From: an uncultured Dehalococcoidia bacterium
GTDB taxonomy: Bacteria > Chloroflexota > Dehalococcoidia > DSTF01 > JACRBR01
Length of the DNA: 64,000 bases
Reading direction: 5' to 3'
Assembly (NCBI GenBank): GCA_964371355.1
Contig: CAYJMG010000003.1
Coordinates: 89,351 to 153,350 of the forward strand
Part shown: positions 23,423 through 60,215 of the stretch, in pieces
How the letters are laid out: the number at the start of each line of letters is the position of its first letter
Numbering within the stretch: the stretch's first letter is position 1
Notes under the pieces: model-generated
Seen by the model: only the letters and a program-made list of their open reading frames with translations
The model's database searches: none
Told to the model about the DNA's origin: nothing
Translations under genes and position numbers: made by a program

Positions 23423-26400
23423 ATGAATCACCAGCAGACAGGCTCGCAGGGAATGCAGGGCCTGGCAGCCGATGCCGCTCTGCGCGCGGTCGTCGAGCGC
23501 GTGTCCGGATCTTCAGGCGGCGAGTTCTACCGGCGCCTGGCCGCCGAGCTGGGCCACGTGTTCCGCGCATCCTACGCGGGAGTTGGCGAACTGTCCCTCG
23601 ATGGCGAGCGGGTGTCGCTGCTGGGCGCGTGGTCGCGCGACCCGACGAGTACCCCCGGCGACTTCGCCGTCGCCGCGACGCCCGCCGAGCCCGTCGCACA
23701 GGGCGAGATACGGCTGCACCGCGAGCGCGTCCGGCGCGAGTTCCCCGCCGACCAGCGGCTACAGCGGCTCTTCGCCGAGAGCTACCTGGGTGTCCCCATC
23801 ACCGACGGGCGGGGCGACGTCCTGGGCCTGATCGAGTTGATCGCCGACACCCCGGTGCGCGATGCGGACGCGGCCACCGCGATCGTCATGGCAATGGCCG
23901 AGCGGACGGCGACCGAGATGGAGCGCGACCAGGCAGAGGCCGCGCTGCGCGACAGCGAGATGCGGTACCGGGCGCTCATCGAGGACTCGTTTCACCTGGT
24001 GGCCGAAGTCGTCGACGAGCGCTTCATCTACGCCAGCTCGGGCTACACCGATACGCTGGGCTACCCGCCGGAAGACCTGCTGGGCGGCAGCGTCTTCGAG
24101 CTGATCCACGAAGAGGATCGCAAGGCCGCAGCCGGCGAGCTGCGGGCGATGCTTTCGCAGCGGCGCGCGGCCCACTTCACCGTGCGTATGAGGCACGAGC
24201 AGGGTGCATGGCGATGGATCGAATGCACGGCGCGCGCGTTCCGCACAAGCGGCGGCGAGTTCCGGACGACGCTGTTCTCGCGCGACGTTACCGACCGCGT
24301 GAAGGCGGAAGCGGCGCTCCGTGAGAGCGAGGAGTTGTTCCGCTCGCTCATCAAGGACCTGCGCGTGGGCGTGGCGCTGCACGACGCCGACGCGCGTGTG
24401 TTGGTCTGCAACGACGCGGCGCTCGCGCTCCTTGGACTGACCGAGGAGGAGGTCCTGGGCAAGACGTCGTACGACGACTCGTGGCGGCCGACGCGCGAGG
24501 ACGGCACGATCATCCCCCCGAACGAGCGCCCGGTGCCGCTCGCCATTGCGACGGGCGCGCCGGTGCGCGACATCGTGTACGGCGTACATCGCCCAGCCAC
24601 GGGCGAGCAAGCCTGGGTGTTGGCGAGCGCGGAGCCGCAGTTTGATGCGGACGGCAGGGTGCACCGCGTCATCTGCTCGTTGAACGACATCACGGCGAGG
24701 CTCATGGCGGAGCAGGAGCTGCGGGCGAGCGAGGGGCGGTTCCGTTTCCTGGCTGAGAACAGCATGGACGTCATCTCCCGCTACGACGCGGACGGACGCT
24801 GTGTCTGGATGTCCCCGTCAGTCACGCCACTAACGGGCTACACGCCGGAGGAGGTCGTCGGGCACTCGCTGGCCGAGATCTTTGCGAACAACGACGACGG
24901 CCTGCTCGCCGGCGCGCTGGCCAACGTGCAGGAAGGCATCGAGTCGTTCCGCACGACCTTCCAGGTCCGGCACAAGGATGGGCACCAGGTCTGGATGGAG
25001 GCGACGAACAAAGTCGTGCGCGACCCCGAGACGGCGGACGTCATCGAGATCCAGACGTCGGCGCGTGACATCTCCGGCCGGAAGCGGGCGGAAGACGAGT
25101 TGCGGGAGAGCGAGGCTCGCTTCCGGCTGCTGGCCGAGAACTCGACCGACATCATCGCGCGATACACGCCCGGAGGCAGGTGCATCTGGGTCTCGCCGTC
25201 CATCAGGAGCGTCACGGGGCGCGACCCCGAGGCCGTCATCGGCCAGATCCCGGGCCACCAAATCCACCCGGATGACCGCGAAGGCGCCGTCGAGGCAATG
25301 CGCGCCCTGGCCGCGGGCGAGGATCAGCGGACGTACACCTTCCGGTTCCAGCACGTCGACGGCCACTACATCTGGCTGGAAGCGCACGCCCGCGCCATCC
25401 GCGACGCCGGCGGGGCCCTGACCGAAGTCCAGACGTCGTCACGCGATGTCACGGCGCGTATGAACGCGGAGGACGAGCTGCGGGAGAGCGAGACGCGCTT
25501 CCGCCTGCTGGCGGAGAACGCTACTGACATGATCTCCCGCTTCGCCCTGGACGGAACGCGTCTCTGGGTTTCGCCATCCGTGCAGGCGATCACCGGCTAC
25601 TCACAGGAAGAGACGATGCAATCGGGCCCCGTCGACAACGTCCACCCTGACGACGTTGCGGCTCTCCAGACGTCGTTCCGGGCGATGGTCGACGGTGAAG
25701 CCTCGCGACGCACGACCTTCCGCTTCCGGCACAGGGACGGGCGTTACCTCTGGCTCGAAGCCGACGGCCGGGCGATCCGCGACGAGGACGGACGGGTGAT
25801 CGAGATCCAGTCGTCCGCCCGCGACGTGACGGCACGCAAGCAGGCCGAAGAGGAACTGCGCGAGAGCGAGGGTCGCTTCCGGCTGCTGGCCCACAACTCC
25901 ACGGATATCATCGGGCGCTTCTCGCCGGACGGCAGGTGTGTCTGGATCTCACCCTCGGCACAGCCGATCACCGGATACACCCCCGAGGAGATCGTGGCGG
26001 CGGCGCCCGCGAAGTTCGTGCACCCCGACGACGCGCTCGAAGTGTGGAACGCGTTCAACGGGATGGTGGAAAGCGGGGCTACGCAGCGCGCCACATTCCG
26101 CTTCCGTCACAAGGACGGCCACTACATCTGGCTGGAGGCGAACGGCCGCGCGGTCCGCGACGACACAGGCCAGGTGGTCGAAATCCACTCCGCGACCCGC
26201 GACGTAACGGCGCGGATGGAGGCGGAGGACGACCTGCGCGAGAGCGAGGGGCGGTTCAGGCTGCTGGCGGAGAACGCGACCGACATGATCGGGCGGTTCA
26301 CGCCGGACGGCGTGTGCCTCTGGGTGTCGCCATCGGTCACCGCCGTCATGGGCTACGAGCCGGCGGAACTCATCGGCCAGAATCTCCGAGAGGGGATCCA

Positions 26401-29400
26401 CCCGGACGACCTGGCGGCGATCTCGCGTGGCCCGGACTGGGAACGGCCGGACTCGGTCACGTCCCTGATGCGCTATCGGCACAAGGCCGGGCACTACATC
26501 TGGATCGAATCGACCAGCAATGCGGTGCGCAACCCGCAGACCGGCGAGGTCATCGAGATCCACAACACGTCGCGCGACGTCACGGCCAGGAAGGCAGCGG
26601 AGGACGATCTGCGCGAGAGCGAGGCCCGCTTCCGCCTGCTCGCGGAAAACGCCACCGACGTCATCGGCCGCTACGCGATGGATGGCCGCTGCCTCTGGGT
26701 ATCGCCCTCGGTCACGCAGGTCCTGGGCTATGCGCCCGACGAAATCGTGGGGCAGGAACCATTCGGCCACATCCACCGCGACGACCTGCAGGACAACATG
26801 CCGTTCCGGCCGGGCGCGACGGATCTGCCGGACCAGTGGCGTACGACACTGCGCTACCGCCACAAGGACGGGCGCTGGGTGTGGCTGGAATCGACGAACC
26901 GCCCGGCCCGCGACCCGCAGACAGGCGCGATGCTCGAAGTGCACTCGACCTCGCGCGATGTCACCGCACGCATCGAGGCCGAGGAGCAGCTCCGCGCCAG
27001 CGAATCGCGGTATCGATCGCTCAGCGAATCCTCCCCGCTCGGCGTGTACGAAACAACAGCCGACGGCGACGCGACGTACTTCAACGAGCGCGCGATCCGG
27101 ATGGCCGGCATCGGCCTCGACGAGCTGAAAGGCTGGGGCTGGAGCCGTCACGTGCACCCCGACGACCGGCCGATCGTGGAAGCGGCGTGGCGTGCTGCGA
27201 CGCAGGACGGCCGTGAGTGCACCATCGAGTACCGCCTCCAGACGCCGCGCGGCATCATCTGGGTGTCCTCGCACGCCCTCCCCATCCGGCTCCCGGACGG
27301 CACTGTCGAGAAGTACGTCGGCACCATCGACAACATCACCGAACGGCGGGAGGCCCAGGAGGCAGTGCGGCGCAGCGAGCAGCTCTTCCGCGCCACGCTG
27401 GAATCGACCGCCGACGGCATCATCGTCACGCGGCCCCTTGGCGAGCTGATGTACTGGAACAACCGCGCGGCGGAGATGCTCGCGATCCCGCAGACGGTGC
27501 TGGACACCCACAGTGTGCAGGCCTTCGGGCGATACATCATCGAGAATGCCCGGGAGCCGGAGGCGCTGGTGATGGCGTTCTCCTCGCTTCCCTCCGACGA
27601 GCCCGTGCAAGCAGGCACCTGGACCGCGCGCGACGGCCGGATGTTCGAGGCCTTCGCGCACCCGCTGCACGACCCTTCGGGCGACCTACTGCGCGTGTGG
27701 AGCATCCGCGAGGTGACCGAGAAACACCAGTCGGAAATGGCGCTGCGCCAGAGCGAGGACCGGTTCCGCTCGCTGGCCGAGCACACGACGGACCTCGTCC
27801 TTGGTATCTGCGGGCCCGGCGTTATCGACTACGCGAGCCCGAACTGGTCCTCGGCAATGGGCTACAACCCCGAGGTCATGATCGGGCGGAACGCGCTCGA
27901 CTTCGTGCACCCTGACGACCTCCCGTACACCCTCGAAGAGTTCGAGCGCGCGGCGGAGGGCGACCGTGCCGTCTGCACGATGCTGCGGGCACGTCATGGG
28001 CAGACCGGCGAATGGCGCTGGTGCGAGCTGACGGCGAACTTCTACACCTCGGACATGGGCGAACAGCGCGCCGTCGTCACCGCCCGCGACGTCACCAGCC
28101 GAAAACAGGCCGAAGACGCGCTGCGGGAGAGCGAGGAGCGCCTGCGGACGGTCGTGAACAGCGTCCCCCTGGTGCTTGTCGCAGTCGACCGGGACGAGAC
28201 GGTCGTGCTCGCGGAGGGCCAGGGCCTTGGCCTGCTCGGCACTCCGACCCGGCCGCTGGTGGGCAGGTCGATCGCGGAGGAGCTGGAGAACCACCCGCAG
28301 GTGCTCGCCGACATGCGGCGCGCGCTCGCCGGTGACGAAGTCTCCACCACGACCGTGTTCGGACGCATCGTGTTCGAAGCGCACTTCCGCCCGATCTTCG
28401 ATGAACACGGCCAGCCCAACGGCATGATCGGCGTGGCATACGACATCTCGGCGCGCGTCGAGGCAGAGCGCATGTTGCGGGACAGCGAGGAGACGGCGCG
28501 CGCCCTGCTGAACGCGCCCACCGACGGCGCCGTGCTGGTCGACCGCGAGGGCACGATCCTGGCCATGAACGAGACGGCGGAACGGCGCTTCCGCGAGCAC
28601 GCCTCGAAGCAGGGTGTAGGGCCGCGCGACTTCATCGGCACGTGCGTCTTCGATATCTTCCCGCCCGACCTCCGCGCCCAGCGGCGGGCACGCAACGACG
28701 AGGTGTTCCGCAACGGCCAGCGCCGCCACTTCGAGGACGAGCGCGACGGCATCTGGACCGACGTGACCGTCGACCCAATCCGCGACGCTGACGGCAACAT
28801 CGTGCGCCTGGCGATCTTCTCCCGCGACGTCACCGACCGCAAGCGCGACGAGGCCGCCCTGCGCAAGCGCTCGCGCGAACTCGAGGCACTGAATGACTAT
28901 CTCGAGAAGACATCGGCCGAGCTTGAGCGCTCCCAGGACGAGCTGCGCGAGGCGAGCGAGCAGCTCGCGGAGCTGCTGGACGCAGAACAGGCGCGGTCGA
29001 AGACCGACACACTGACCGGAGCGCTGAACCATGGGACCATCTCCGAGGCCATCTCGGAGGCGATCGCGGCGGATGTTGCGCTCGCCGTAGCCATGGTCGA
29101 TGTGGACGGCATGAAGGCCGTCAACGACACCTACGGCCACCAGGCGGGCGACCAGGTCCTCCTCGCGGTCGTGCAGGCCATCACCCGCCCAGGCGCCATC
29201 ACCGGCCGCTACGGAGGCGACGAATTCCTGGTGGCGCTGCTGAACGCCGACCGCATCGAAGCCGAAGCCTACAGGGACGCTGTGGGGGCGGCGCTGCAAG
29301 GGGCCGGCGTGGTGGACCCCGAGAGCGGGGCCCGCGTCCCCGTCGTCGCCAGCGTGGGCATCGCCATGTACCCTGAGGACGCGGACACGCTAAAGGCGCT

Positions 29401-30664
29401 CATCGAGCGCGCGGACGAGCGCATGTACGAGGAGAAGAAGGCCCGCAAGGCCAACGGCACCGGCCTTTCGCCGTCGCGCACCATCGGCGACGAGCGCGCG
29501 GCCCGCATGGTGGGCGAGCTGGTGCCGCTGCTGACCTCCAGCGGCACGCTGGACGAGAAGCTGAGACTGGTGGCCCACCGGCTTTCCGTCGGCGCTGGCT
29601 ACGCCGGCGTGAACTTCGACGTGCTGGGCGAGCACGACGGCCGCACCACCACCGTCAACCAGAACGCCTTCACCAAGGCGCCCGACGAGGTGATCGAGGC
29701 ATGGAACCGCCACCAGCGCTCGGGCGTGAACGGTCGCATCAGCGACCTGCTGCGCCAGACGCGCCGGGCGGTGATCATCGATGACATCGCCGCCAGCCAG
29801 CTCGTGACGGAGGAGCAGAAGAAGCTGCTGCTGTCGATCGGCATCGTCTCGGGCATCGTGGTGCCGCTGTTCGACGGCGACGCGATGGTTGCCACCATGT
29901 CGGTCGGGAGCAAGGACGTATCAGGGTTCTCCCAGAGCGACATGCAGTTCCTGACGGCGGTCGCCGGCCAGGTATCGGCCATCATCCGCATGGCTCGCCT
30001 GGTGGAAGACCTGCGGCGGGCAACGGGCCGGCTGGAGGAGGCGCGCGACGAGACGGTCATGTTCCTGGCCGAAGCGGCCGAGGCCCACACACAGAGCGGC
30101 GGCCGGCACTTCCTGGCCACGCGCGCCATCGCCGAGGCGATCGCCACGGAAATGGGGTTCGACGAGGCGAGCGTGCGGGAGCTGGGCCAGGCGGCGGCTC
30201 TGCACGACATCGGCAAGATCCACCTGCCCGACGCCCTGCTGTCCAGCCCGGAGCCACTATCGCCACGGCTCGGCATCGATCCCGCCGGGCAGGCGTGGGA
30301 GACGCTGCAGCAGCACTGTGCGCGCGGGCGCGAGTTCCTGGCCCGCGGCAAGGGATTCGAGCTGGCGGCGATGGCGGCGTACATGCACCACGAACGCTGG
30401 GACGGCGCCGGATACCCGCAGGGCATCGCCGGCGACGCCATCCCCATCGAGGCGTCCATCATCGCGGTGGCCGACAGCCTCGACGCGATGATGACCGAGA
30501 GCCCCTACCAGCCCGGCCGGTCGCTGGACGAGGCGGTCGCCGAAATCCTCGCCTGTCGCGGGACGCAGTTCCGCCCGGACGTGGTCGACGCGTTGTCCCG
30601 CCTGTACGAGCGGCGCGCGCTGCACGGCGTCTGGGCTCAGGACGAGGGCGCGGAGGCGGCCTGA
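23423..30664 (+). CDS. Giant multi-PAS c-di-GMP signalling protein: GAF, 13 PAS, GGDEF, GAF, HD-GYP (about 2413 aa)
   Basis: A single uninterrupted ORF. 13 PAS units each begin with a (E/D)xLRxSE(x)RFRxL linker. Intact GGDEF (RYGGDEFLV) with upstream DVDGMKAVNDTYGHQAGD. HD-GYP (ALHDIGKI ... HHERWDGAGYP). The ATG at 23423 is taken as start; the track's 23303 start and an ATG at 23453 are alternatives. Confidence 0.85.
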   Translation: MNHQQTGSQGMQGLAADAALRAVVERVSGSSGGEFYRRLAAELGHVFRASYAGVGELSLDGERVSLLGAWSRDPTSTPGDFAVAATPAEPVAQGEIRLHRERVRREFPADQRLQRLFAESYLGVPITDGRGDVLGLIELIADTPVRDADAATAIVMAMAERTATEMERDQAEAALRDSEMRYRALIEDSFHLVAEVVDERFIYASSGYTDTLGYPPEDLLGGSVFELIHEEDRKAAAGELRAMLSQRRAAHFTVRMRHEQGAWRWIECTARAFRTSGGEFRTTLFSRDVTDRVKAEAALRESEELFRSLIKDLRVGVALHDADARVLVCNDAALALLGLTEEEVLGKTSYDDSWRPTREDGTIIPPNERPVPLAIATGAPVRDIVYGVHRPATGEQAWVLASAEPQFDADGRVHRVICSLNDITARLMAEQELRASEGRFRFLAENSMDVISRYDADGRCVWMSPSVTPLTGYTPEEVVGHSLAEIFANNDDGLLAGALANVQEGIESFRTTFQVRHKDGHQVWMEATNKVVRDPETADVIEIQTSARDISGRKRAEDELRESEARFRLLAENSTDIIARYTPGGRCIWVSPSIRSVTGRDPEAVIGQIPGHQIHPDDREGAVEAMRALAAGEDQRTYTFRFQHVDGHYIWLEAHARAIRDAGGALTEVQTSSRDVTARMNAEDELRESETRFRLLAENATDMISRFALDGTRLWVSPSVQAITGYSQEETMQSGPVDNVHPDDVAALQTSFRAMVDGEASRRTTFRFRHRDGRYLWLEADGRAIRDEDGRVIEIQSSARDVTARKQAEEELRESEGRFRLLAHNSTDIIGRFSPDGRCVWISPSAQPITGYTPEEIVAAAPAKFVHPDDALEVWNAFNGMVESGATQRATFRFRHKDGHYIWLEANGRAVRDDTGQVVEIHSATRDVTARMEAEDDLRESEGRFRLLAENATDMIGRFTPDGVCLWVSPSVTAVMGYEPAELIGQNLREGIHPDDLAAISRGPDWERPDSVTSLMRYRHKAGHYIWIESTSNAVRNPQTGEVIEIHNTSRDVTARKAAEDDLRESEARFRLLAENATDVIGRYAMDGRCLWVSPSVTQVLGYAPDEIVGQEPFGHIHRDDLQDNMPFRPGATDLPDQWRTTLRYRHKDGRWVWLESTNRPARDPQTGAMLEVHSTSRDVTARIEAEEQLRASESRYRSLSESSPLGVYETTADGDATYFNERAIRMAGIGLDELKGWGWSRHVHPDDRPIVEAAWRAATQDGRECTIEYRLQTPRGIIWVSSHALPIRLPDGTVEKYVGTIDNITERREAQEAVRRSEQLFRATLESTADGIIVTRPLGELMYWNNRAAEMLAIPQTVLDTHSVQAFGRYIIENAREPEALVMAFSSLPSDEPVQAGTWTARDGRMFEAFAHPLHDPSGDLLRVWSIREVTEKHQSEMALRQSEDRFRSLAEHTTDLVLGICGPGVIDYASPNWSSAMGYNPEVMIGRNALDFVHPDDLPYTLEEFERAAEGDRAVCTMLRARHGQTGEWRWCELTANFYTSDMGEQRAVVTARDVTSRKQAEDALRESEERLRTVVNSVPLVLVAVDRDETVVLAEGQGLGLLGTPTRPLVGRSIAEELENHPQVLADMRRALAGDEVSTTTVFGRIVFEAHFRPIFDEHGQPNGMIGVAYDISARVEAERMLRDSEETARALLNAPTDGAVLVDREGTILAMNETAERRFREHASKQGVGPRDFIGTCVFDIFPPDLRAQRRARNDEVFRNGQRRHFEDERDGIWTDVTVDPIRDADGNIVRLAIFSRDVTDRKRDEAALRKRSRELEALNDYLEKTSAELERSQDELREASEQLAELLDAEQARSKTDTLTGALNHGTISEAISEAIAADVALAVAMVDVDGMKAVNDTYGHQAGDQVLLAVVQAITRPGAITGRYGGDEFLVALLNADRIEAEAYRDAVGAALQGAGVVDPESGARVPVVASVGIAMYPEDADTLKALIERADERMYEEKKARKANGTGLSPSRTIGDERAARMVGELVPLLTSSGTLDEKLRLVAHRLSVGAGYAGVNFDVLGEHDGRTTTVNQNAFTKAPDEVIEAWNRHQRSGVNGRISDLLRQTRRAVIIDDIAASQLVTEEQKKLLLSIGIVSGIVVPLFDGDAMVATMSVGSKDVSGFSQSDMQFLTAVAGQVSAIIRMARLVEDLRRATGRLEEARDETVMFLAEAAEAHTQSGGRHFLATRAIAEAIATEMGFDEASVRELGQAAALHDIGKIHLPDALLSSPEPLSPRLGIDPAGQAWETLQQHCARGREFLARGKGFELAAMAAYMHHERWDGAGYPQGIAGDAIPIEASIIAVADSLDAMMTESPYQPGRSLDEAVAEILACRGTQFRPDVVDALSRLYERRALHGVWAQDEGAEAA
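24712..26985 (+). repeat. Six tandem 375-381-bp direct repeat units (PAS-domain-encoding) inside the giant signalling gene
   Basis: Unit boundaries at 24712, 25093, 25474, 25849, 26224 and 26605. They all begin ga(g/a)ga(c/g)ga..tgcg.gagagcgag...cg.ttc.g.ctgct.gc.ga.aac. The encoded PAS units share RFRHKDGHYIWLE-type cores. Confidence 0.75.
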
Positions 30665-31935
30665 CGGGCCTCGGCCGGCTCCGGCGCGTCACTGCCGTGG
30701 CGGGTGAGGTTCACGGCCGCCCACACGGCGAACGTGACCCAGCCCCACACGAAGAACCACCACCCGTTGTCGCGCAGCCACTCCGTACCGGGGCCATCGA
30801 TGCCCGGGAAGATCAGGCCACCGCCGAGGAAGGCGATGATGACGTAAGAGGCCGTGTGGGCGGCAACGAGAGACGCCACGAGGAGACGCTGTCCGCTGAG
30901 GAGACCGAAGGGGACGATCCAGAGATAGTGGTAGGGCGCGCCGTCGTTCACCATCACGAAGAGCACCGCCAACACGCCGGCGATGGACGAATACAGCGGA
31001 GCGCGGCGGTAGATGAGCCAGGCCGCCGCGGCCAGCGTCGCCGCATATGCGGGCCACTCGCCGTGGTCGATCTCGAAGCGCAGCACTGTCGCCGATCCCG
31101 GCACGAATCCGAGGAAGCGGTCGATGATCAGCGGCGGCCCACCCAGCGTCGGGAACGGTGAGTAGTAGCCCTCCACGCCGTCGTACACCCGCAGCGGCGT
31201 GCTGCCGAACGCGAGCACGTACGCCAGGACCGCGCCCCCGACGACGGCGCCGGCCACGATGAGGTACTCCACCCTGCGTTCCGCGCGCAGCCTCGCCAAC
31301 AGCAACGGAATCAGGAACGCGGGCCACAGCTTCTGCAGGATGCCGAGCGCCAGCAATCCGGCCGACTGCAGGCGACTGCCCCCGGCGTTCGCCTCGGACA
31401 GGACGAAGACCGCGGAGACGGCGAAAAAGACCGAGATGACGTCGAACTGACCGTGGTAGATGGTCGCGAGGACGGGGAACGGGCACACGGCGTAAAGCAG
31501 TCCCGTGCGCACGCCCTCGGCCCTCCCCCACAGACGCGACGCCGCATGCGCGAGCAGCAACGCCGTACCCGCGTCGGCCAACGCCTGCGGGACACGGACC
31601 GCCGTGAAGAACGGGATGGGTGTCGCGTCGGCTATGAGCTTGCACACCGCCAGGATGTACATCTGGAACGGCAGGTACGGGTGCGGGAAGGGGCCGAAGG
31701 CGTAGATGTCGCGCCCGTGCAGGACCTCGTTCGCGGTTTTCTCGTAGTTGTTGATGTCGGTCAGCCAGAGGCCTTCGGGCTCGCGGTACACCAGCAGCGG
31801 CACGAACCGCACGATCAACGCGACCGCGGCGACCACCGCGAACTCGCGGCCCGGCGGCACGTCCGGCCGCAAGAACAGCAGCCACACGAAGGCGATGCTC
31901 GCCATCACGATCCACATGAACATGAAGAGAATCAC
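30637..31935 (-). CDS. Polytopic membrane protein, GT87/DUF2029-like (candidate lipid-linked-sugar-dependent glycosyltransferase)
   Basis: 432 aa with about 11 transmembrane helices and a DUF2029-like arrangement. The 3' end overlaps the giant gene's 3' end by 28 bp (convergent). Confidence 0.5.
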   Translation of the reverse strand: MILFMFMWIVMASIAFVWLLFLRPDVPPGREFAVVAAVALIVRFVPLLVYREPEGLWLTDINNYEKTANEVLHGRDIYAFGPFPHPYLPFQMYILAVCKLIADATPIPFFTAVRVPQALADAGTALLLAHAASRLWGRAEGVRTGLLYAVCPFPVLATIYHGQFDVISVFFAVSAVFVLSEANAGGSRLQSAGLLALGILQKLWPAFLIPLLLARLRAERRVEYLIVAGAVVGGAVLAYVLAFGSTPLRVYDGVEGYYSPFPTLGGPPLIIDRFLGFVPGSATVLRFEIDHGEWPAYAATLAAAAWLIYRRAPLYSSIAGVLAVLFVMVNDGAPYHYLWIVPFGLLSGQRLLVASLVAAHTASYVIIAFLGGGLIFPGIDGPGTEWLRDNGWWFFVWGWVTFAVWAAVNLTRHGSDAPEPAEARQAASAPSS

Positions 31936-31983: not shown

Positions 31984-33354
31984 TCAGCGCGCCCTGCGGT
32001 GCGCGCGCTGCTTGCGCCAGATCGAGAATCTCCGGCGCAGGCCGAAGCGCGCCTCGTAGTACGAGCGCGAGACGAACCAGTCGAGCGAATGCAGCGCGAT
32101 CGGCAGGCGCTGCTCGTTGCGGCGCACGGGCGAGCTTGACGCGCCGGTGCAGTAGTCGATGAGCGGCGCCAGCGTGCGCTCCCACGTGTACTCCTCGCGG
32201 ACCGCTTCGACGTTGCGGCGGCAGGCCGCGCGGTAGCCCGCGTCGCCCGCCAGCCGGTCGAGCGCGACCGTGAGCGCATCGAGGTCGCCCTCGGGTACCG
32301 CCGCGCCGAGCCCGCGCGCCTCGACCATCTCAGCCACCATGTCGCCCTGCGTGCAGACCAGCGGCAGGCCGGCCCAGAAGCAGTCCAGGTAGCGCACGCG
32401 GAACGAGAACCGCGTCTCCAGGCTGTCGTAGTACGTACAGACGGCGACGTCCGACTCCAACAGGTACTGCTGGGTGTCCTCGTTGTTCGCCCACGTGAAG
32501 TTGAAGAAGACGTGCGTATCCAGGATTCCCAGCTCGCGGCAAAGGTCGAGCGCACGCTGGGTCGTGCCGCCGCCCAGGCCCTGCAGCGTCTTCGCGCCGT
32601 AACTGTCCGGGTGCTCGGTGCCCATGAAGAACAACCGCATGTTCGGATGCCGGTCCTTCAGGCGAGCGACGGCACGGAGCAGCAGGCCCATGTCGTACCA
32701 GTCGACGATGATGCCGTTCCAGATCATCACGAAGTCGCCGCGCCCGATGCCCGGCCACACGCCGCGCAGCAGCGGCACGCCCGCCACGGGCGGCGCCGGC
32801 CGGATGCCGATGGGCGCGATGCGGATCAGACCCTCCAGCGTGGGATCGCTGTCGAACGCGCGGGGCGTAATGAGCCCGGCCGTGCCCATGATGCCTGCAA
32901 TGAGGTCGCGCTGCCGCACGTTCGAGCAGAGGATTGTGTCGGACGCGGCGATCTGCGTGATGAGATCGCGGCGCTTCATGTCGATCCAGGCGCGGCGGTG
33001 CGACTCGCCAGGGTCGCGCTTCGTCATCTCCACCCACTCCGTGATGAATGGAGTGAACAGGTCGAGCACGAGGCGCGTGTTCCCCGCGAACGGCAGCATC
33101 TTCAGTGGGAAGCGCGTGCTGATGACGATGTCGTGCTCGCGCGTCAGCCGCCCGATGTTCGCGCCGTCGTGGCGGGTGAAGGCGAAGGGCACGGTCGCCG
33201 GGTCGAGGTCGGCCGGCGTCGTGCGCGGGATGGCGAGCGTCACCTGCGCGCCCGGGACACGCTCCTGCAGCACCCGCGCCATGTGGTAGCTGCGGATGCC
33301 GCCGCTGGCCATCGTGCCGCCCACCGTCGTGTGGCCCAGGACGAGGATCTTCAT
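31984..33354 (-). CDS. GT4-like (GT-B fold) glycosyltransferase, paralog 1 of 3
   Basis: 456 aa with a C-terminal GT4-type Rossmann layout (IWNGIIVDWYD..., ADVAVCTYYDSLETRFSFRVRYLDCFWAGLPLVCTQGD, final YTWERT). The EX7E motif is degenerate. ATGA overlap with paralog 2. Confidence 0.6.
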   Translation of the reverse strand: MKILVLGHTTVGGTMASGGIRSYHMARVLQERVPGAQVTLAIPRTTPADLDPATVPFAFTRHDGANIGRLTREHDIVISTRFPLKMLPFAGNTRLVLDLFTPFITEWVEMTKRDPGESHRRAWIDMKRRDLITQIAASDTILCSNVRQRDLIAGIMGTAGLITPRAFDSDPTLEGLIRIAPIGIRPAPPVAGVPLLRGVWPGIGRGDFVMIWNGIIVDWYDMGLLLRAVARLKDRHPNMRLFFMGTEHPDSYGAKTLQGLGGGTTQRALDLCRELGILDTHVFFNFTWANNEDTQQYLLESDVAVCTYYDSLETRFSFRVRYLDCFWAGLPLVCTQGDMVAEMVEARGLGAAVPEGDLDALTVALDRLAGDAGYRAACRRNVEAVREEYTWERTLAPLIDYCTGASSSPVRRNEQRLPIALHSLDWFVSRSYYEARFGLRRRFSIWRKQRAHRRAR

Positions 33355-34715
33355 TGCGCCGCCGAATGCCGCGGGGCCAGTCGCGCTCGCACCCGCTGAC
33401 GCAGGCGGAAGCGCAGGAAGTGGTACGACTCCGACAGCAGCCAGTCAGCGCCGAGGCGTGCGATCGGTAGCAGGCGCGCATTGTGCAGCGCGGCCCGCGG
33501 TGCGCCCTCCCGGCAGTAGTCGATCAGCGGCCTCAGCGTCTCCTCCCACGCGAACGACGGCCGCAGCGCCTCGACGTTGCGCCGGCACCCTGCGCGGAAG
33601 GCGTCATCGGAGGCCAGCCGTCGCACCGCGGACACGATCGCGTCCACGTCGCGTTCGGGGACGCTGACGCCAAGCCCCCGCTTGTCGACCATCTCGGACA
33701 CCACGTCGCCGCGCGTCGACACGATGGGCAGTCCTGCCCAGATCAGGTCGAGGAAGCGCACGCGGAACGAGAACCGCGTCTCCAGGTTGTCGAAGTACGT
33801 CGCGACACCGGCGTCCGCGTCGGCCAGATAGCGCTCCGCGGTCTCGTCATCGGCCCAGCCGAAGTTGAAGAACACGTGCGTGTCCAGGATGCCCAGCTCC
33901 TGCGCCAGCTCGTACGCCGCTCGCACCGCCCCCCCGCCCATCCCCCGGAAGCGGCCGGCATCGAAGCTGTGGGGGTGCTCCGTACCCAGGAACACCAGCT
34001 TTACGTCGTCGCGCTCGCGGCTGAGCCGATGGACAGCGTGGATGAGCGACGCGGCGTCGTACCACTCGATGATGGTGCCGTTCCAGAGCAGCAGCTTGTC
34101 GTCGGGGCGGATGCCGGGCACCGCGCCCTTCACGCCGCCACGCGCGGGCAGTGGCCGCGGCCGCACGCCGTACGGAGCGACGGCCAGCACGCTGCCCAGG
34201 CTGGTGTCGCAGTCGTACGTGTGGGCGCTGATGAGGCCCAGCGTACCCATGATGCCGGCGTACAGGTCGCGCTGGCGCTCGTTCGCACACAGGACGAGGT
34301 CGGCGAGGGCGAGCTGCAGCAGCGTGTTCTTGCGCCGCGGCTCCAGCCAGATGTTGCGATACGGCGGGTCTTGGGTGTTCTTCGAAAGTTCGAGCATCTC
34401 GGTGTAGCCCGGCGTGTACATGTCCAACACGATGCGCGTATCCGACGCCGCGGGCAGCAGCTTCAACGGAAACTTGGTCGTCACCACCACGTCCGAGGAC
34501 TTCGTGAGCGAGATCATGTCGCGCTCTGAAGGACGCACGATCTCGAAGCACTCCCGCGCGGGGTCGACATCGCACGGGGTGTGCGGCGAGATGGCCAGCG
34601 TGACGCGGGCATCGGGGAGCTGCTGTTGGAGCACGCGGGCGACGTGGTAGGCCCGGATGCCGGGGGCGGCCATCTTCGTGCCGATAACGGCGTTGGTGAG
34701 GATGGTGACGCGCAT
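33351..34715 (-). CDS. GT4-like (GT-B fold) glycosyltransferase, paralog 2 of 3
   Basis: 454 aa from the ATG at 34715, with the same architecture as paralog 1 (RVTILTNAVIGTKMAAPGIRAYHVARVL ... ETRFSFRVRFLDLIWAGLPIVSTRGD). The start overlaps paralog 3's stop (TAATG). Confidence 0.6.
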   Translation of the reverse strand: MRVTILTNAVIGTKMAAPGIRAYHVARVLQQQLPDARVTLAISPHTPCDVDPARECFEIVRPSERDMISLTKSSDVVVTTKFPLKLLPAASDTRIVLDMYTPGYTEMLELSKNTQDPPYRNIWLEPRRKNTLLQLALADLVLCANERQRDLYAGIMGTLGLISAHTYDCDTSLGSVLAVAPYGVRPRPLPARGGVKGAVPGIRPDDKLLLWNGTIIEWYDAASLIHAVHRLSRERDDVKLVFLGTEHPHSFDAGRFRGMGGGAVRAAYELAQELGILDTHVFFNFGWADDETAERYLADADAGVATYFDNLETRFSFRVRFLDLIWAGLPIVSTRGDVVSEMVDKRGLGVSVPERDVDAIVSAVRRLASDDAFRAGCRRNVEALRPSFAWEETLRPLIDYCREGAPRAALHNARLLPIARLGADWLLSESYHFLRFRLRQRVRARLAPRHSAAQ

Positions 34716-36058
34716 TACTGGCTCAGCACCACGCCGACCGCACGCTGGGCCGCCCACTGCGCCCACGCCCCGGCCAGCATCGCCGTGCGCTTCCACTTCG
34801 GGAGGGCGCTGGTGCGCGGGTCGCGGCAGAACTCCACGAGGTCGCGCAGGGCGACCGTCCAGCTCATCTCCTTGTTCGCCTCGCGGATGTTGCGGCGGCA
34901 CTCCTCGTAGTAGTCGGGGTCGCCCAGCAGGCGCAGGATCGCGCCCGCGACGGCGTCGACGTCCTGCTGCGGGACGGCTTCGCCCATCCGCTTCTCGCGC
35001 ACCATACCGGCCAGCACGTCACCCTCCGTGCAGATCAGCGGCACCTCGGCCCAGAACACGTCGACGAACCGCGTGCGCAGCGAGAAGTGCGTCTCCAGAT
35101 TGTTGAAGTAGGTGCAGACGGCAAGGTCCGCCTCGAGCATGTAATCCTTCATCCGCTCGTACGGCACCCAGGCCATATCGAAGAAGACGGTGTTGTTGTA
35201 GAGCCCCAGCTCGTTAGCCAGTTTCAGGGACTCCATATAGCGCAGGCCCAGGCCCATGCCCTGCAGCCCGGGGTAGGCGCCACCCACGAACACCAGCTTG
35301 ATGTCGTCGCGCTCCTCCCGCACCTTCGCCATCGCCTGCAGCAGCGTGATGGGGTCGTACCACTGCAGAATGCCGCCGTTCCACATGATGAGCCTGTCGG
35401 TCTCCTTGATGCCCGCGTATACGCCCTTCAGCGCCGGCTTCCCCTTCGGGCCCAGGGGGTCGGGGCGGATCCCATGCGGCGCCACGCCGATCATCCGCTT
35501 CAGCGAGGGGTCGTCGTCGTAGGCGATGGGGTCGATCAGGCCGAGCGCGATCAGCGCGCCGATGTAGTAGTCACGCTGGCGATCGTTGGCGACGCTGATG
35601 TAGTCGGCGGAGACAAGCTCGGCGCCGACGCGGCGGCGGGCGCCGGCCATGTACGTCTCACGGTAGCGCTTGTTCTTGCGCAGGTGGTCCCGCGACTGCT
35701 CCATCCACTCCAGGAAGTAAACGGTGTAGTAGTCGAGCACGAACGTCTTCCAGGGGAAGGCGGCGATGGCGTGGGGCGGGTAGTCGTTGGCGATGATGAT
35801 GTCGTGCTGCATCATCAGCGCCAGCAGTGAGCGCCAGTTGTAGTAGGCGACGCTGTAGGGCAGGCGAGAGGGGTCGTCAGGCGGGTCGCTGCCCTTCTGC
35901 AGCGCGAGCGTGATCTCGGCCTCGGGCAGCTCCTGGGCCAGCACCTCGACCATGTGGCGGGTGCGGATGCCCGGGCTCGACATCTGGGCGCCAAAGGCCG
36001 ACCGGCTGACGACGAGGATGCGCTTCCGCCCGCTGCCGTTGCTCTTCGCCATCAGCAC
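34715..36058 (-). CDS. GT4-like (GT-B fold) glycosyltransferase, paralog 3 of 3
   Basis: 447 aa, more divergent, with the same layout (KRILVVSRSAFGAQMSSPGIRTRHMVEVL ... ETHFSLRTRFVDVFWAEVPLICTEGD). Confidence 0.6.
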   Translation of the reverse strand: MLMAKSNGSGRKRILVVSRSAFGAQMSSPGIRTRHMVEVLAQELPEAEITLALQKGSDPPDDPSRLPYSVAYYNWRSLLALMMQHDIIIANDYPPHAIAAFPWKTFVLDYYTVYFLEWMEQSRDHLRKNKRYRETYMAGARRRVGAELVSADYISVANDRQRDYYIGALIALGLIDPIAYDDDPSLKRMIGVAPHGIRPDPLGPKGKPALKGVYAGIKETDRLIMWNGGILQWYDPITLLQAMAKVREERDDIKLVFVGGAYPGLQGMGLGLRYMESLKLANELGLYNNTVFFDMAWVPYERMKDYMLEADLAVCTYFNNLETHFSLRTRFVDVFWAEVPLICTEGDVLAGMVREKRMGEAVPQQDVDAVAGAILRLLGDPDYYEECRRNIREANKEMSWTVALRDLVEFCRDPRTSALPKWKRTAMLAGAWAQWAAQRAVGVVLSQ

Positions 36059-36094: not shown

Positions 36095-37189
36095 TCAGCG
36101 CGCCGGCCACTCGATGCGGGAGACAATGTTCGCCCAACTATACATATCGAGGAACGGCGCGGGTACGTTACCGGACTTGACGTGGCGGGGCGCCGCCAGC
36201 GCGGCCGCGAAAGCATCCCAGCCGTCCTCGAAGGACAGCAGCTCCCCGCAAACCGCGCGGTCAATGCCCTCCGCACCCATGGTCGTCGAAACGACAGGCG
36301 TGGCGCAGGCGATGCTCTCCAGGATCTTCAGCCGCGTCCCGCCGCCGCTCACGACCGGCACGGCCACCGCGTCCGCCGCGTTCACGTAGGGCGCCATCGC
36401 CGGGACCGCGCCCGTGTACCGGAGCCGCGGGTGGGAGTACAGCCATGCGGCCTCCTCGTGGTTCTTGCCCGCGACCACGAACTGGTAGTCGAGGCCCGCA
36501 CGGTCCAGCCGCGGCAGCAGCTCCTGGTGGATGATGCGCAGGGCTTCCCCGTTGGGGGCATAGCCGAGCTGCCCGAAGAACAGCAACATCTTCGTGCCCT
36601 CGCCGATCGCGAGCTGCTCGCGGACGCGCGCCCCCGCCGCAGCGTCAGGATGCACGACCGCAGCGTCGACGCCGTTCGGCACCAGCTGTATCTTCGCCGC
36701 AGGCACGCCGCACCGTCGAAAACGCTCGCCGTCCTCCGCCGAGACGACGAAGATGCTCGACCCAAGCCGCGCGATCAGCCGCTCGTACAGGGCGACAAGC
36801 CGCCAGGCGCGCGATCCCGTGCTGCGGAAGCGGTCGCCCTCGACGTTCGGCGCGTCGAGCACCAGCGGCACGCCCAGCCGCCGGGCGAGGTACGCGGCGT
36901 GCAGCCCCGGCCACGGATACTCCGTCACAATCACATCCGGCCGCTGGTCCCGCGCGATGACGAGCGCGCGGCGCAGGAAACCGGCATCGAGCACCTGGTG
37001 GCGGCGGCCAGGTGGAGTCGTCTCGTAAAGGCGCACCCGCAGGTCGTTCGCGGCGTTCGCCGGAGAGCGCGGCGTGAAGAGCAACAGCTCGTGCACGGGT
37101 GCCAGGTGCTTCAGGAGGTTGTAGGCGCGGACGCGCCCGCCATCGTCGGGCGGAAAGATCGGGTACGGCACGATCATCGCGATGTTCAT
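36095..37189 (-). CDS. Glycosyltransferase family 4 (glycosyl transferases group 1)
   Basis: 364 aa from the ATG at 37189 (MNIAMIVPYPIFPPDDGGRVRAYNL...). C-terminal GT4 motifs. ATGA overlap with the upstream GT2. The track's 108-codon N-terminal extension is an Arg/Ala-rich artefact. Confidence 0.8.
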   Translation of the reverse strand: MNIAMIVPYPIFPPDDGGRVRAYNLLKHLAPVHELLLFTPRSPANAANDLRVRLYETTPPGRRHQVLDAGFLRRALVIARDQRPDVIVTEYPWPGLHAAYLARRLGVPLVLDAPNVEGDRFRSTGSRAWRLVALYERLIARLGSSIFVVSAEDGERFRRCGVPAAKIQLVPNGVDAAVVHPDAAAGARVREQLAIGEGTKMLLFFGQLGYAPNGEALRIIHQELLPRLDRAGLDYQFVVAGKNHEEAAWLYSHPRLRYTGAVPAMAPYVNAADAVAVPVVSGGGTRLKILESIACATPVVSTTMGAEGIDRAVCGELLSFEDGWDAFAAALAAPRHVKSGNVPAPFLDMYSWANIVSRIEWPAR

Positions 37190-38121
37190 CTGCGCGCCCT
37201 CGGCCCCGTGCGGCCCATTACCCCGGCTACAAGGCCCTCGACGCGACCCAGCGCCTCGGCCGGGTTCCCCTGCGCGAGCGCCTTCAGGCTCTCGTACGCG
37301 ACGAGCCCGGGCTGCGCGGCGAGCGCGGTGATGCGGCGGACGCCCCGGAGACCGCGCCGGACGAAGCGCAGCCGGTTGCGCGCGAAGTAGTACGCCTGCG
37401 CCCGTGTCAGCCGGTTCGAGCCGCGCACGCCAGCCGCGGCCGACACCATATGCCGCACCGCGGGCCCTGGCGCGAGCCAGCACTCGGATCCGGCGAGCCG
37501 CACGCGCTCGCACAGGTCAGCATCTTCAAAGTAGTGAAAGTACGCCTCATCGAGGCCGCCGAGCCGCTCGAAGGCTTCGCGGCGGATGGCGATGGCGGCG
37601 CCCGTGATGAAGTCAACGGCCGCCTCCGTGCGAGGCAGCTCACGCGCACGGAAGCCCATGTGCCGCGTGTAGCCCAGCCAGCGGTTCAAGCGCCCGCCGG
37701 CGAACCACACGCGGCCGGGGTCGTCCTCGTACACCACCGGCAGGCCGGCGACGGCCGCCCGTGGATGCGTCTCGAACAAGACGGCCACGGTCTCCAGCGT
37801 CCCCGGCTCGATGGCGACGTCGTTGTTCAGCAGCAGCACGGCCCCTGCCCCGGCCGCGAAGGCCCCGCGGGCGCCGGCGTTACACCCGGCGGCGTATCCG
37901 CCGTTTTCGGCCAGCCGCACGATGCGCACGCCCGGGCAGGCGGAACGCGCTGCGCCTTCGTCAAGGTCGCCCGGCCCGTTCTCCACGAGCACCACCGCAG
38001 CCGGCCCGCCCCCCGCGGCGGCGATGGAGCGCAGGCAGGCAAGCGTATCGGCGAAGCCGCGCCAGTGCACGACAACGATGCCGAAAGGACCTGGCACCCG
38101 GCCTGAGGCAGAATCGCTCAC
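37186..38121 (-). CDS. Glycosyltransferase family 2
   Basis: GT-A fold with GIVVVHWRG, LVENGPGD, a DxD-like NNDVAIEP, and FHYFEDADLC. Confidence 0.8.
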   Translation of the reverse strand: MSDSASGRVPGPFGIVVVHWRGFADTLACLRSIAAAGGGPAAVVLVENGPGDLDEGAARSACPGVRIVRLAENGGYAAGCNAGARGAFAAGAGAVLLLNNDVAIEPGTLETVAVLFETHPRAAVAGLPVVYEDDPGRVWFAGGRLNRWLGYTRHMGFRARELPRTEAAVDFITGAAIAIRREAFERLGGLDEAYFHYFEDADLCERVRLAGSECWLAPGPAVRHMVSAAAGVRGSNRLTRAQAYYFARNRLRFVRRGLRGVRRITALAAQPGLVAYESLKALAQGNPAEALGRVEGLVAGVMGRTGPRARR

Positions 38122-38179: not shown

Positions 38180-38977
38180 GTGGGCAGAGACTACACACGC
38201 TTCCTGGTGCTCGGCGAGGGGCGCACAGGGTCCAACCTCCTCGTCCAGGCGCTGAACTCTCACCCTAACGTCGTGTGCTATCGCGAAGTGTTCAATTGGA
38301 CGCACAAACGGATCGACTACAACGTCGAAGGCTATGAGGATCTGAGCCGCAAGGATGTCCGGTTTCGGGCCGATGACCCGTTGCGCCTACTGGACGAGCG
38401 CATCTTCCGTGACTACCCCGCGGATATCGCGGCCGTCGGCCTCAAACTCCACTACGGCCACGCGTTTGGCTTCGCGGGTGTTGAGGAGGCACTCATCGAG
38501 GATCAGGCGCTTCGCGTGGTGCACCTCAGACGGCAGAACATGCTCCGTACATTGGTCTCACTCCGCGTCGCCGAGCAAACCGGCGTGTGGGAGCATGACG
38601 AAGACGCCTCCTTGCGTGTCCGCCTACGGCGGCTGGCCGGACGAGTCTCCACCCGCGTGAAGTACGGTGACCCGGCGCGTGTGCGCCTGACCTACGAGCA
38701 GTGCAACCAGTTCTTCATCGTGCACGCTCTCCAGGGCCAGCGTTATGACGAGCTCTTCGCGGCACATCCGGTCCTGCAGGTCAGGTACGAAGACCTCGCG
38801 AAGAACCGGGACAGCGTCCTGGCCGGCGTGCAGCGCTTCCTTGGTGTCCCGTTCGTCGACCTGAAGGTAACGTTGCAGCGCCAGTCCCGGACGCCCTTGC
38901 GAGAAACGATCGTCAACTTCGACGAACTCCGGGCCGCCTTCGCCGGGACCAGTGCGGAGGCACTGTTCGATGAGTGA
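38180..38977 (+). CDS. Sulfotransferase (Stf0-like, PAPS-dependent), paralog 1
   Basis: N-terminal 5'-PSB-like P-loop FLVLGEGRTGSNLL and a 3'-PB-like region (VVHLRRQNMLRTLVS). Followed by a tandem paralog with an 8-nt overlap. Confidence 0.65.
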   Translation: MGRDYTRFLVLGEGRTGSNLLVQALNSHPNVVCYREVFNWTHKRIDYNVEGYEDLSRKDVRFRADDPLRLLDERIFRDYPADIAAVGLKLHYGHAFGFAGVEEALIEDQALRVVHLRRQNMLRTLVSLRVAEQTGVWEHDEDASLRVRLRRLAGRVSTRVKYGDPARVRLTYEQCNQFFIVHALQGQRYDELFAAHPVLQVRYEDLAKNRDSVLAGVQRFLGVPFVDLKVTLQRQSRTPLRETIVNFDELRAAFAGTSAEALFDE

Positions 38978-39815
38978 CGGCTACGTCCGCTTCATCATCA
39001 CGGGGGACGCGCGTACCGGGTCGACGATGCTGGCCCAGGCGCTCAACACAAATCCGGCCGTGCGGAGCCTTCGCGAGATCTTCCACCATTGGAAGGATTT
39101 CCTGGACTACGGGGTCGAAGGGTACGACCCGTTCGACACGGAAGCGCTGCGGCTTCGGAACGACGATCCCGTGCGCTTCCTGAGAGAACGGATCTTTTGC
39201 GGCTATCCCGAGCAGATCGGTGCGGTCGGCTTCAAGTACATCTACGGCCAGATGTGGGGATACGATGACTTGACGGACTTCCTCAAGAATGACGCCGAAC
39301 TCCACGTCATTCACCTGAAGCGCCGGAACTGGCTCCGCGCACTCGTATCCGTGCGGATCGCCGAGCTGTCAAGCCGCTGGCTGGATGACGAGAGCGCAAC
39401 GCCGCGGCGAAAGCGGCGCTTGCACGTGCGCGCGGCCTCCGCACTGCTGCATCCCCGGCGAGCGCTTGGTGACCTGAGGCGCCGGATCGCGCCGCCCCCA
39501 CCGGCGCCCAAACCCAGGCTCACGCTCACGCCCGAGGAGTGCGAACAGTGGTTCAAGCGGACTCAGTGGGAGGTCGGGCGGGTCGATGAGCTGTTCGCGC
39601 GCCAGCCCAGGCTCGATGTCTTCTTCGAGGACATGCTCGCCGACCGTGCCGGTGCGTTCTCGGCCGTGCAACGCTTTCTGGAGGTCGAACCAGTGGACCT
39701 GGCGGTGACTTCGCGGCGGCAGAATCCAGAGCCGCTGAGCGAACTCCTGACCAACCACGACGATCTGCGCGCGACGTTCACCGGCACCGATTTCGTCTCG
39801 TTCTTCGACGAATAG
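38970..39815 (+). CDS. Sulfotransferase (Stf0-like), paralog 2
   Basis: FIITGDARTGSTMLAQAL P-loop, VIHLKRRNWLRALVS, and a C-terminus (DELFARQP...FEDMLADR...VQRFLEV) co-linear with paralog 1. Confidence 0.65.
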   Translation: MSDGYVRFIITGDARTGSTMLAQALNTNPAVRSLREIFHHWKDFLDYGVEGYDPFDTEALRLRNDDPVRFLRERIFCGYPEQIGAVGFKYIYGQMWGYDDLTDFLKNDAELHVIHLKRRNWLRALVSVRIAELSSRWLDDESATPRRKRRLHVRAASALLHPRRALGDLRRRIAPPPPAPKPRLTLTPEECEQWFKRTQWEVGRVDELFARQPRLDVFFEDMLADRAGAFSAVQRFLEVEPVDLAVTSRRQNPEPLSELLTNHDDLRATFTGTDFVSFFDE

Positions 39816-39968
39816 CGCACCTCTGCTCGCGCTTAGCTCGCAAGTTGACGCCTTATCTGACTCGTCTCATTGACGAGGCACCGCGGGTGTGGTCTGATTG
39901 ACTCCCGCCCTGCTGTCGCGCCGCGTCCTGCTGCGCGCCGGCCGTCTGCGCTTTCAGGGGGAGTTCAC

Positions 39969-41747
39969 ATGGCAGGCCGGGTGGCGGCCCCGGCTCGGGA
40001 GCGAAGCACCGGCCCGGCGCCGCTCAACTGGGACGAGGCATCACCGTCCGCGATCGCGGACCTCGCGGCGCGCGCCCTCCGCTACTGGCCGCTCGCGCTC
40101 GTAGCCCTTGTGGCCGTGGCCAGCCGGCTGCGTTACATCGCGGGCTTCGACGGCGCGTACGGCTCCGGCGACGCGCACCTGCTGCTCACGAAGGCGCTCT
40201 TCATCGAGCGCGGCGACCTCCGCCCCGATGCGTCGCTGGGCGTGAGTTCCAACATCTTCGCCACGCCCCCGCTGGTCCCGATGCTGCTCGGCGGCTTCGC
40301 GCGCGTCACCACGGTCCCGGTCGATCACGCGCCTCTCATCCTGGGGCCGCTGGTCACCGTCGCCGGGCTGCTGGCGCTGTACGCCGTCGCAGCCCGCGCG
40401 TTCGATCGCACCGTGGCGATAGCGGGCGTGCTGCTGGTGGCACTGCTGCCGCGCTTCTCGTTCGACTCGACCGAGCCGGACAAGGTGGCATACGTCCTGA
40501 GCTTCTTCCTCATCGCGCTGTTCTTCCTGTACGAGGGGCAGCGACGGCCCGCACTGCTGCTGGCCGCGGGCGCGTTCATGGGGCTCAGCGTCTTCTCGCA
40601 CACGACGGCGTACCTGTTCCTGCCCGTGTACCTGCTGTCGCACGTGGCGCTCTCGCGCGGCCGCATGCGGAAGGTGCTCTCGCCGTACTTCCTGGCCTCC
40701 TGCGCGATCGTGCTGGCCTTCCTGGCCGCCTATTCCGCCCTCGACGCGCGCTTCGACCCGACGAGCGACACGACGGCGACCGGCGCGGCACTGGAGCCCG
40801 GCGCCGGCGCGGGCCGGCCGACAGAGGACGCCCGCCTCCCGGAGTCCACCCCTGCCGGGCGGACCCGCCGCTTCGTGCCCCAGGTCGTCGACGAGTACAT
40901 AGACAACGTGAGCAGGCTGGCGCGCGACGGCTTCCAGCGGAGCGCGGGCGACCTGTACCTCGACGGCATCCGCGCGCAGATCCTCGACCCCGTGTATGTG
41001 TTGGCGATCGGCGGATTCTGCGTCGCGGCGGCGCTGGCGCTGCTGCGGCGGCGGATGGAGGCGGTGCCGCTCCTGCTGTGGATGATGATCGTGACCGCCG
41101 GATTCGCCATGCAGTATCCCGCCGCCTCGCACACCAGCCGCTACCCCTCGTACGTCACGCCGGTGTTCCTGATCATGGCCACGTTCTTCGTGGTCTGGGC
41201 GGCTCGCCAGATCGCGGCGCGGGCCGGCGCGCGCGAGGCGATGGCACTGGCGCTGGCCGCGCCCTTCGTGGCCTACGCTGCCTTCTCGTACGTGACGGCG
41301 CCCGACCCGGGGCTGCGCAAGCTCTTCGCTGGCCACCACGAGCTAGCCGCCTACGTCTCCGACAACGATCTGCTAAGTGAGGATCGGCAGATCCTGTATC
41401 TGGGGTGGCCGTCGTTCACGTTCGGCCTCGCCAGGAGCGAGGCTGATGTCGATTGGCTGCACAGCTTCGGCTGGCGGCGCGTATCGCTGGCCGGGTACGA
41501 CGCCGACTATGTCGCCCAGAATAACGTCCGCTACTACGCCTACGACGACCTCACCGACGACTACTTCGGCTCGGCGAAGCAGGTGCTGGCAAACCTCCAG
41601 CGTGACTTCGAGATGCGTCCGGTGTTCACGTACTGCACCGCCGGCTCGGCGGCGTCGCACGCGGAGGCGGACGGCTGCGCCGGCCACGTCACGCTGTACG
41701 AAGTGGGCGCGCGGAAGGCGCAGCCGGCGGACGCCGTCACTCCTTGA
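39969..41747 (+). CDS. GT-C fold membrane glycosyltransferase (PMT/ArnT-like, polyprenyl-phosphate-sugar dependent)
   Basis: 593 aa from the ATG at 39969. About 11 transmembrane helices, with an early loop containing the DG/acidic motif (IAGFDGAYGSGDAHLL) typical of GT39/GT83-like enzymes, and a large C-terminal soluble domain. Confidence 0.6.
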   Translation: MAGRVAAPARERSTGPAPLNWDEASPSAIADLAARALRYWPLALVALVAVASRLRYIAGFDGAYGSGDAHLLLTKALFIERGDLRPDASLGVSSNIFATPPLVPMLLGGFARVTTVPVDHAPLILGPLVTVAGLLALYAVAARAFDRTVAIAGVLLVALLPRFSFDSTEPDKVAYVLSFFLIALFFLYEGQRRPALLLAAGAFMGLSVFSHTTAYLFLPVYLLSHVALSRGRMRKVLSPYFLASCAIVLAFLAAYSALDARFDPTSDTTATGAALEPGAGAGRPTEDARLPESTPAGRTRRFVPQVVDEYIDNVSRLARDGFQRSAGDLYLDGIRAQILDPVYVLAIGGFCVAAALALLRRRMEAVPLLLWMMIVTAGFAMQYPAASHTSRYPSYVTPVFLIMATFFVVWAARQIAARAGAREAMALALAAPFVAYAAFSYVTAPDPGLRKLFAGHHELAAYVSDNDLLSEDRQILYLGWPSFTFGLARSEADVDWLHSFGWRRVSLAGYDADYVAQNNVRYYAYDDLTDDYFGSAKQVLANLQRDFEMRPVFTYCTAGSAASHAEADGCAGHVTLYEVGARKAQPADAVTP

Positions 41748-60185: not shown

Positions 60186-60215
60186 GTCACCAGACAGATA
60201 GGCCACAGGGCCGCC

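Follow-up and report, generated by a model that had tools for sequence, protein, structure and literature searches.

A putative GT4-like glycosyltransferase subfamily with an altered donor-pocket motif, encoded by neighbouring paralogues in Dehalococcoidia

Contig CAYJMG010000003.1 of an uncultured Dehalococcoidia bacterium carries, within the 64,000 nucleotides analysed here (the window, numbered from its first letter), three consecutive minus-strand genes that we designate A, B and C. Judged from sequence, their products are predicted to belong to a distinct, large and uncharacterised GT4-like subfamily of glycosyltransferases, whose donor pocket is unlike that of textbook GT4 enzymes. On balance, we favour the reading of A, B and C as GT-B transferases that are catalytically competent and bind the membrane peripherally, each most likely adding one sugar to a lipid-linked glycan.

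Three overlapping paralogous genes

Gene A occupies positions 31984-33354 and encodes 456 amino acids (aa) from an ATG start. B, at 33351-34715, encodes 454 aa from the ATG at 34715, the longest open reading frame (ORF) containing it extending to 34901, and C, at 34715-36058, encodes 447 aa from a GTG or 445 aa from the ATG at 36052. The ORFs of 456, 454 and 447 aa listed in a preliminary description of this DNA are all present and have a strong coding bias, with a G+C content at third codon positions of 0.86-0.95 in a window of about 68% G+C. An independent gene caller applied to contigs of the same organism called all three genes identically. Overlaps of 1-4 nucleotides (nt) had also been reported, and direct reading of the sequence bears this out: at the B/A junction GCGCAATGAAG the stop of B overlaps the start of A by 4 nt (ATGA), and at the C/B junction CAGTAATGCGC the stop of C overlaps the start of B by 1 nt (TAATG).

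Pairwise alignment revealed significant mutual similarity among the proteins. A and B are 49% identical, and A and C are 36-37% identical across 411 residues, that is, over their full length (BLASTP E = 9e-102); A compared with the ordinary GT4 protein encoded just upstream gave a BLASTP E value of 1.3. The common N-terminal motif described earlier matches all three proteins. The C-terminal motif is exact in A and B and loose in C (ETHFSLRTRFVDVFWAEVPLICTEGD), the one point on which an otherwise accurate description does not hold.

A, B and C each consist of two Rossmann-like domains in a GT-B fold. Their C-terminal domains scored 41-47 bits against PF00534 (gathering cut-off 26.4) and 39-44 bits against PF13692 (gathering cut-off 27), placing them within GT-B as GT4-like proteins. 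Residues 1-200 of the three proteins had no Pfam match, where Glyco_transf_4 or Glyco_trans_4_4 would be expected and where the adjacent GT4 does match, and scores against the NCBIfam GT4-type models were all far under their cut-offs. A single-sequence search of the PDB was too weak, giving one marginal match (E = 0.5), and comparison with GT4 structures relied on a family profile search instead. Identity to the CAZy GT4 enzymes BshA, MshA, PimA, WaaG, PglA and HepE is 12-18%. The interpretation in the preliminary description was partly supported, its broad reading, tandem GT4-like paralogues in glycan synthesis, being judged right.

Compared with those enzymes, the family has an added basic C-terminal helix of about 45 residues. 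The last 45-50 residues form a long, strongly basic helix, which in A spans residues 412-455 and carries a net charge of +11; the corresponding values are +8 in B and +4 in C, and the charge is at least +3 in 87% of family members. No transmembrane segment was found. Together, the basic helix and the lack of such a segment are consistent with peripheral membrane binding.

The donor-pocket motif

In GT4 enzymes the first Glu of the EX7E motif contacts the donor sugar, and the second forms hydrogen bonds with the ribose hydroxyls (PMC8760489). The second acid had been described as replaced in all three paralogues. The stretch on which this was based, E-TRFSFRV-R, does exist, but its meaning is a separate question, and the replacement proved to be an error of register in which eight residues were counted from Glu313 onto Arg321. 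Three independent alignments instead placed the second GT4 Glu (LEAMAxGxP) at Asp324 (LDCFWAGLP): phmmer with A against 2r60, the family profile against PimA, and hhalign with a 134-sequence family alignment against six canonical GT4 genes from the fetched loci, both locally and globally (96-97% probability). These six were the only clean EGFGxxxxEAxxxGxP genes in the loci, which yielded no match to strict GR..KG and EX7E regular expressions when searched for a canonical GT4 reference. Between the acids lies an insertion of 2-3 residues, and the family motif is E313-x10-D324, with Asp as the second acid, as compared with E-x7-E in GT4. Departures from EX7E are tolerated within GT4, as WsaF, a rhamnosyltransferase of the Geobacillus stearothermophilus S-layer glycan with a GT4 fold, has P-x7-E (PMC3898925).

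A bigger departure, missed by the preliminary description, concerns the basic pair that clamps the donor diphosphate in GT4 (R196/K202 in PimA, R231/K236 in MshA, R208/K209 in WaaG). The pair that follows strand C-beta-1 as G-R-x4-K-G is absent from the family. It aligns to family positions 215 and 220, in the loop W212-N-G-x-I-x-x-W219-Y-D221, where residue 215 is G, S, T, I or A and residue 220 is Y, F, N, L or Q; neither was basic in any of 281 sequences (134 locus-derived copies and 147 further representatives). Arg319 and Arg321, by comparison, are invariant in 281/281 and are located in the inserted turn that starts the Asp324 helix. We infer that these two arginines may have taken over diphosphate binding, and Asp324 would bind the ribose in place of Glu. 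WsaF likewise has a relocated basic pair, R249/K302 (PMC3898925).

The ordinary GT4 upstream of C also has an unusual sequence at this position. GGGTRLKILE stands in the place of EX7E, the first Glu being changed to Gly, and its R and K loosely match Arg319 and Arg321 of the family. As hhalign against the neighbouring GT4 group of the window gave a probability of only 6%, this alignment is suggestive and was not used as evidence.

Alternatively, the rebuilt pocket could mean that the donor or the reaction is non-standard, such as the use of a sugar-1-phosphate, as in phosphorylase-like chemistry, or of a lipid-phosphate sugar in place of an NDP-sugar. Phosphorylase-like chemistry exists within GT4, the canonical Arg/Lys clamp is lost at positions 215 and 220, and two PMT_2/GT-C proteins of the cluster use lipid-phosphate sugars. 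We regard such a donor or reaction as improbable.

The conservation of the pocket bears on a further alternative, close in spirit to the idea of a degenerate motif, in which one catalytic enzyme would be accompanied by inactive, chaperone-like paralogues in the manner of GtfA/GtfB. Tandem, diverged GT-B paralogues with a seemingly non-canonical EX7E would fit such a system. However, all 13 signature residues, E313, R319, R321 and D324 among them, are the same in 134/134 copies, that is, in every copy of every locus; no paralogue has lost its donor-binding residues, and the second acid is kept, as Asp. The inactive-paralogue model was therefore rejected, and we consider it very improbable.

Copy number, phylogeny and distribution

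Copies of the family were counted by tblastn with A, B and C on all fetched loci, 75 of which were kept. At least two copies were present in 58 of the 75 (53 with two, three with three, one with four and one with five), and 17 had a single copy. When only loci flanked by 3 kb or more at each end were considered, all 43 were multi-copy (40 pairs, 2 triplets and 1 quadruplet) and none was single-copy. Neighbouring copies lay on the same strand in 62 of 66 cases, with a median gap of 190 nt.

Two main Chloroflexota clades, the C-type and a second clade, emerged from clustering and from a neighbour-joining tree. The C-type is represented by one copy per locus in most Chloroflexota loci and lies upstream (5') in most same-strand Chloroflexota pairs. 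C of the window belongs to this clade, whereas A and B both fall in the second. Clear orthologues of A were found at 68-90% identity, but B is at most 47-54% identical to anything else, including the single second-type gene of loci L007 and L008; A and B are therefore a recent duplication of a second-clade member, in which B has evolved fast. Only one other genome, that of the closest sequenced relative with a long enough contig (L001/L009), shows the complete C-B-A order, and it also keeps the GT2, GT4, sulfotransferase, PMT_2 and giant PAS-sensor neighbours described below. It had been asked whether the triplet is conserved as a unit. The pair is the rule, and the triplet was rejected as an ancient unit. 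The ancestral and apparently obligatory arrangement is a diverged pair, C-type plus second type, of which the second member was duplicated into A and B here. Clostridial and Mycetocola pairs form clades of their own.

The copy-number rule raises the possibility of a single obligate hetero-oligomeric polymerase in which the paralogues would be subunits with non-equivalent roles, such as alternating transfers that would yield a disaccharide repeat. We hold this to be a minority possibility, in favour of which several observations speak. Single-copy loci were absent (0/43) among those adequately flanked, A, B and C are translationally coupled, two family domains occur in one chain in P0096 and P0097, and ABC-dependent polymerases are known to assemble single- and multi-module proteins into multiprotein complexes (PMC11231755). 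On the other hand, copy numbers of 2-5 fit modular, sequential use equally well, and the hetero-oligomer overlaps with the reading of one sugar per enzyme more than it excludes it. In a bolder form, which we put forward just as tentatively, proteins with WNGGxxxW[YF]D/ETxxxxRxRxxD would constitute a separate family or a deep GT4 subfamily in Chloroflexota, Clostridia and Actinomycetota, would clamp the diphosphate by two arginines of an expanded EX7E helix instead of by the C-beta-1 loop, and would work only as a heteromeric paralogue pair forming a two-subunit, alternating-linkage polymerase.

The size of the family was badly underestimated by a word-indexed homologue search, which returned 95 clusters, nearly all metagenomic. 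An exhaustive profile search recovered 1,754 representatives (50% identity) at E <= 1e-30 and 3,678 at E <= 1e-10; at E <= 1e-3 there were 19,521, with a long, weak tail of generic GT4 proteins. A genome-collection scan with a 17-sequence alignment gave matches mostly in Chloroflexota of the class Dehalococcoidia, with Tepidiformales and the cultured Tepidiforma flava among them; Alloiococcus, the actinomycete Mycetocola and Clostridium species hold more distant members. The organism of the window, a Dehalococcoidia-like Chloroflexota, is represented solely by metagenome assemblies. Its protein B matches P0032 exactly, and the nearest genome is a groundwater Chloroflexi metagenome-assembled genome (90% identity). 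T. flava was the sole cultured Chloroflexota representative examined. Its pair is immediately preceded, on the upstream side, by ORFs of 857, 656 and 502 aa that match no Pfam model (CP115149; L031 111-6618), and a literature search on Tepidiforma glycosyltransferases returned nothing relevant.

Gene neighbourhoods and the proposed role in glycan synthesis

The trio lies in an operon transcribed in the order GT2, GT4, C, B, A, PMT_2-like. The first gene encodes a GT2 glycosyltransferase of about 294 aa (37186-38070, minus strand), and its stop overlaps the start of the ordinary GT4 (36095-37189, minus strand; about 364 aa, with Glyco_transf_4 and Glyco_trans_1_4 domains) directly upstream of C. 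Downstream of A, a PMT_2-like polytopic membrane protein of GT-C type is encoded at 30637-31935 on the minus strand. This gene is absent from that position in L001 and L005. In L005, another assembly of the same species in which A-C are 100% identical, genes of 64 and 279 aa replace it (L005 9186-10426), and the end of the operon is therefore strain-variable.

Divergent from the operon are two overlapping, tandem sulfotransferase genes (Sulfotransfer_3/Stf0-like) on the plus strand (38180-38977 and 38952-39815), which suggest a sulfated glycan in Dehalococcoidia-class Chloroflexota; their position beside the glycosyltransferase operon is conserved in L001 and L004. They are followed by a second PMT_2 family (GT-C) membrane protein at 39870-41747 on the plus strand and by methyltransferase-domain genes at 41737-42432 and 42436-43119 (minus strand) and 43212-44639 (plus strand). 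The two small methyltransferases on the minus strand are members of a cluster found beside the family in 15 loci. Elsewhere in the window, a plus-strand mini-locus (5040-9813) encodes the ATP-binding cassette (ABC) exporter components Wzm (5040-6023) and Wzt (6013-6903; 296 aa, without Wzt_C), followed by a hexapeptide acetyltransferase, an Acyl_transf_3 membrane acyltransferase and a methyltransferase. Wzm and Wzt are 65-71% identical to products of the exporter genes directly beside the pair in L008.

Recurrent neighbours of the family in a census of 57 loci were GT2 (18/57), Wzt (15/57), a small methyltransferase (15/57), Wzm (13/57), RmlD (12/57) and RmlB (11/57), and the 13-15 exporter-adjacent loci include the close relatives L008 and L010. 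The locus of Clostridium amylolyticum is a textbook ABC-transporter-dependent pathway, with rmlB, rmlC, wzm, wzt with Wzt_C, a methyltransferase and two GT2 genes together with a GT2-family fusion of 1,026 aa and a stand-alone family gene. Modules of the family were found interchangeably fused to other glycosyltransferase domains, as GT2-family, methyltransferase-GT2-family, family-GT2-WsaF-like (P0120) and family-family (P0096, P0097) chains. Taken together, the neighbourhood, the exporter kinship, the fusions and the basic helix support a role in extending the chain of a lipid-linked glycan on the cytoplasmic side of the membrane.

We therefore prefer the reading of one sugar per enzyme given at the outset. 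Each of A, B and C would transfer a sugar from a nucleotide-sugar donor onto a growing lipid-linked glycan at the cytoplasmic face, acting alongside the co-transcribed GT2 and ordinary GT4. The glycan would then be decorated with methyl, sulfate and acyl groups and exported by the Wzm/Wzt ABC transporter.

Several observations weigh against this reading. Wzm and Wzt of the window lie about 25 kb from the trio, which has no adjacent exporter, and the genes around the pair of cultured T. flava are unannotated and include no exporter. The 64-kb window yielded neither a priming phosphoglycosyltransferase nor sugar-nucleotide genes, and tblastn with Rml proteins gave no matches there. At the level of the pocket, the first GT4 Glu aligned with Glu313 only to within one residue, and the closeness of Arg319 and Arg321 to the diphosphate is judged from their position in the sequence only. 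In addition, deep branches of the tree are too short to date the pair outside Chloroflexota.

Comparable arrangements occur in known glycan systems. The common polysaccharide antigen of Pseudomonas aeruginosa depends on contiguous WbpX/WbpY/WbpZ genes, proposed to build a trisaccharide repeat, and on export by Wzm/Wzt, a second cluster nearby supplying accessory methyl- and acetyltransferases (PMC3560663). The window resembles it in combining a glycosyltransferase operon with a separate Wzm/Wzt, acyltransferase and methyltransferase mini-locus, a likeness of organisation for which we claim no sequence kinship. P. aeruginosa differs in being Gram-negative, in its lipopolysaccharide-linked product and in having GDP-D-rhamnose genes, which are absent in the window. 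The WsaF pathway is ABC-transporter-dependent and produces a methyl-capped glycan with several glycosyltransferase genes (PMC3898925), and P0120 joins a WsaF-like module to one of the family. We regard WbpX/Y/Z of P. aeruginosa and WsaC-F of G. stearothermophilus as functional analogues. In ABC-dependent O-antigen polymerases of the Klebsiella O4/O7, WbdA type, activities are spread variably across single- and multi-module proteins (PMC11231755). The family shares this variable layout, its modules being stand-alone, doubled or fused to GT2 and methyltransferase, but the window differs from that type in showing neither a coiled-coil terminator nor a Wzt carbohydrate-binding domain.

Three further features of the window were recorded. 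A giant PAS sensor of 2,453 aa (23303-30664, plus strand), with more than 10 PAS repeats and, C-terminal to them, regions of GGDEF, GAF and HD type, is encoded by a gene that converges on the PMT_2-like gene with a 28-nt overlap, and a 2,312-aa orthologue flanks the trio in L001. At 47122-49095 (minus strand), a 657-aa protein unusually combines a glucose/sorbosone dehydrogenase, a thrombospondin type 3 repeat and a dockerin. The G+C content falls to 0.62-0.64 at 50000-54000 and 60000-62000, against a background of about 0.68-0.70.

What is modestly new here is a sharply defined GT4-like subfamily, marked by E-x10-D, the lack of the Arg/Lys clamp, two invariant arginines and at least two neighbouring paralogues. 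Nothing in it overturns current understanding, and its enzymology is incremental. If confirmed, the signature would allow annotators and CAZy curators to distinguish about 1,750 clusters, as a subfamily, from undifferentiated "group 1 glycosyltransferases", and the pocket would be the second documented way, after WsaF, in which the GT4 fold binds the donor diphosphate. The rule of at least two neighbouring paralogues would hint at heteromeric polymerases. The subfamily would also offer a way into the almost unknown surface glycans of Dehalococcoidia-class Chloroflexota, which may be methylated and sulfated, as the cluster suggests.

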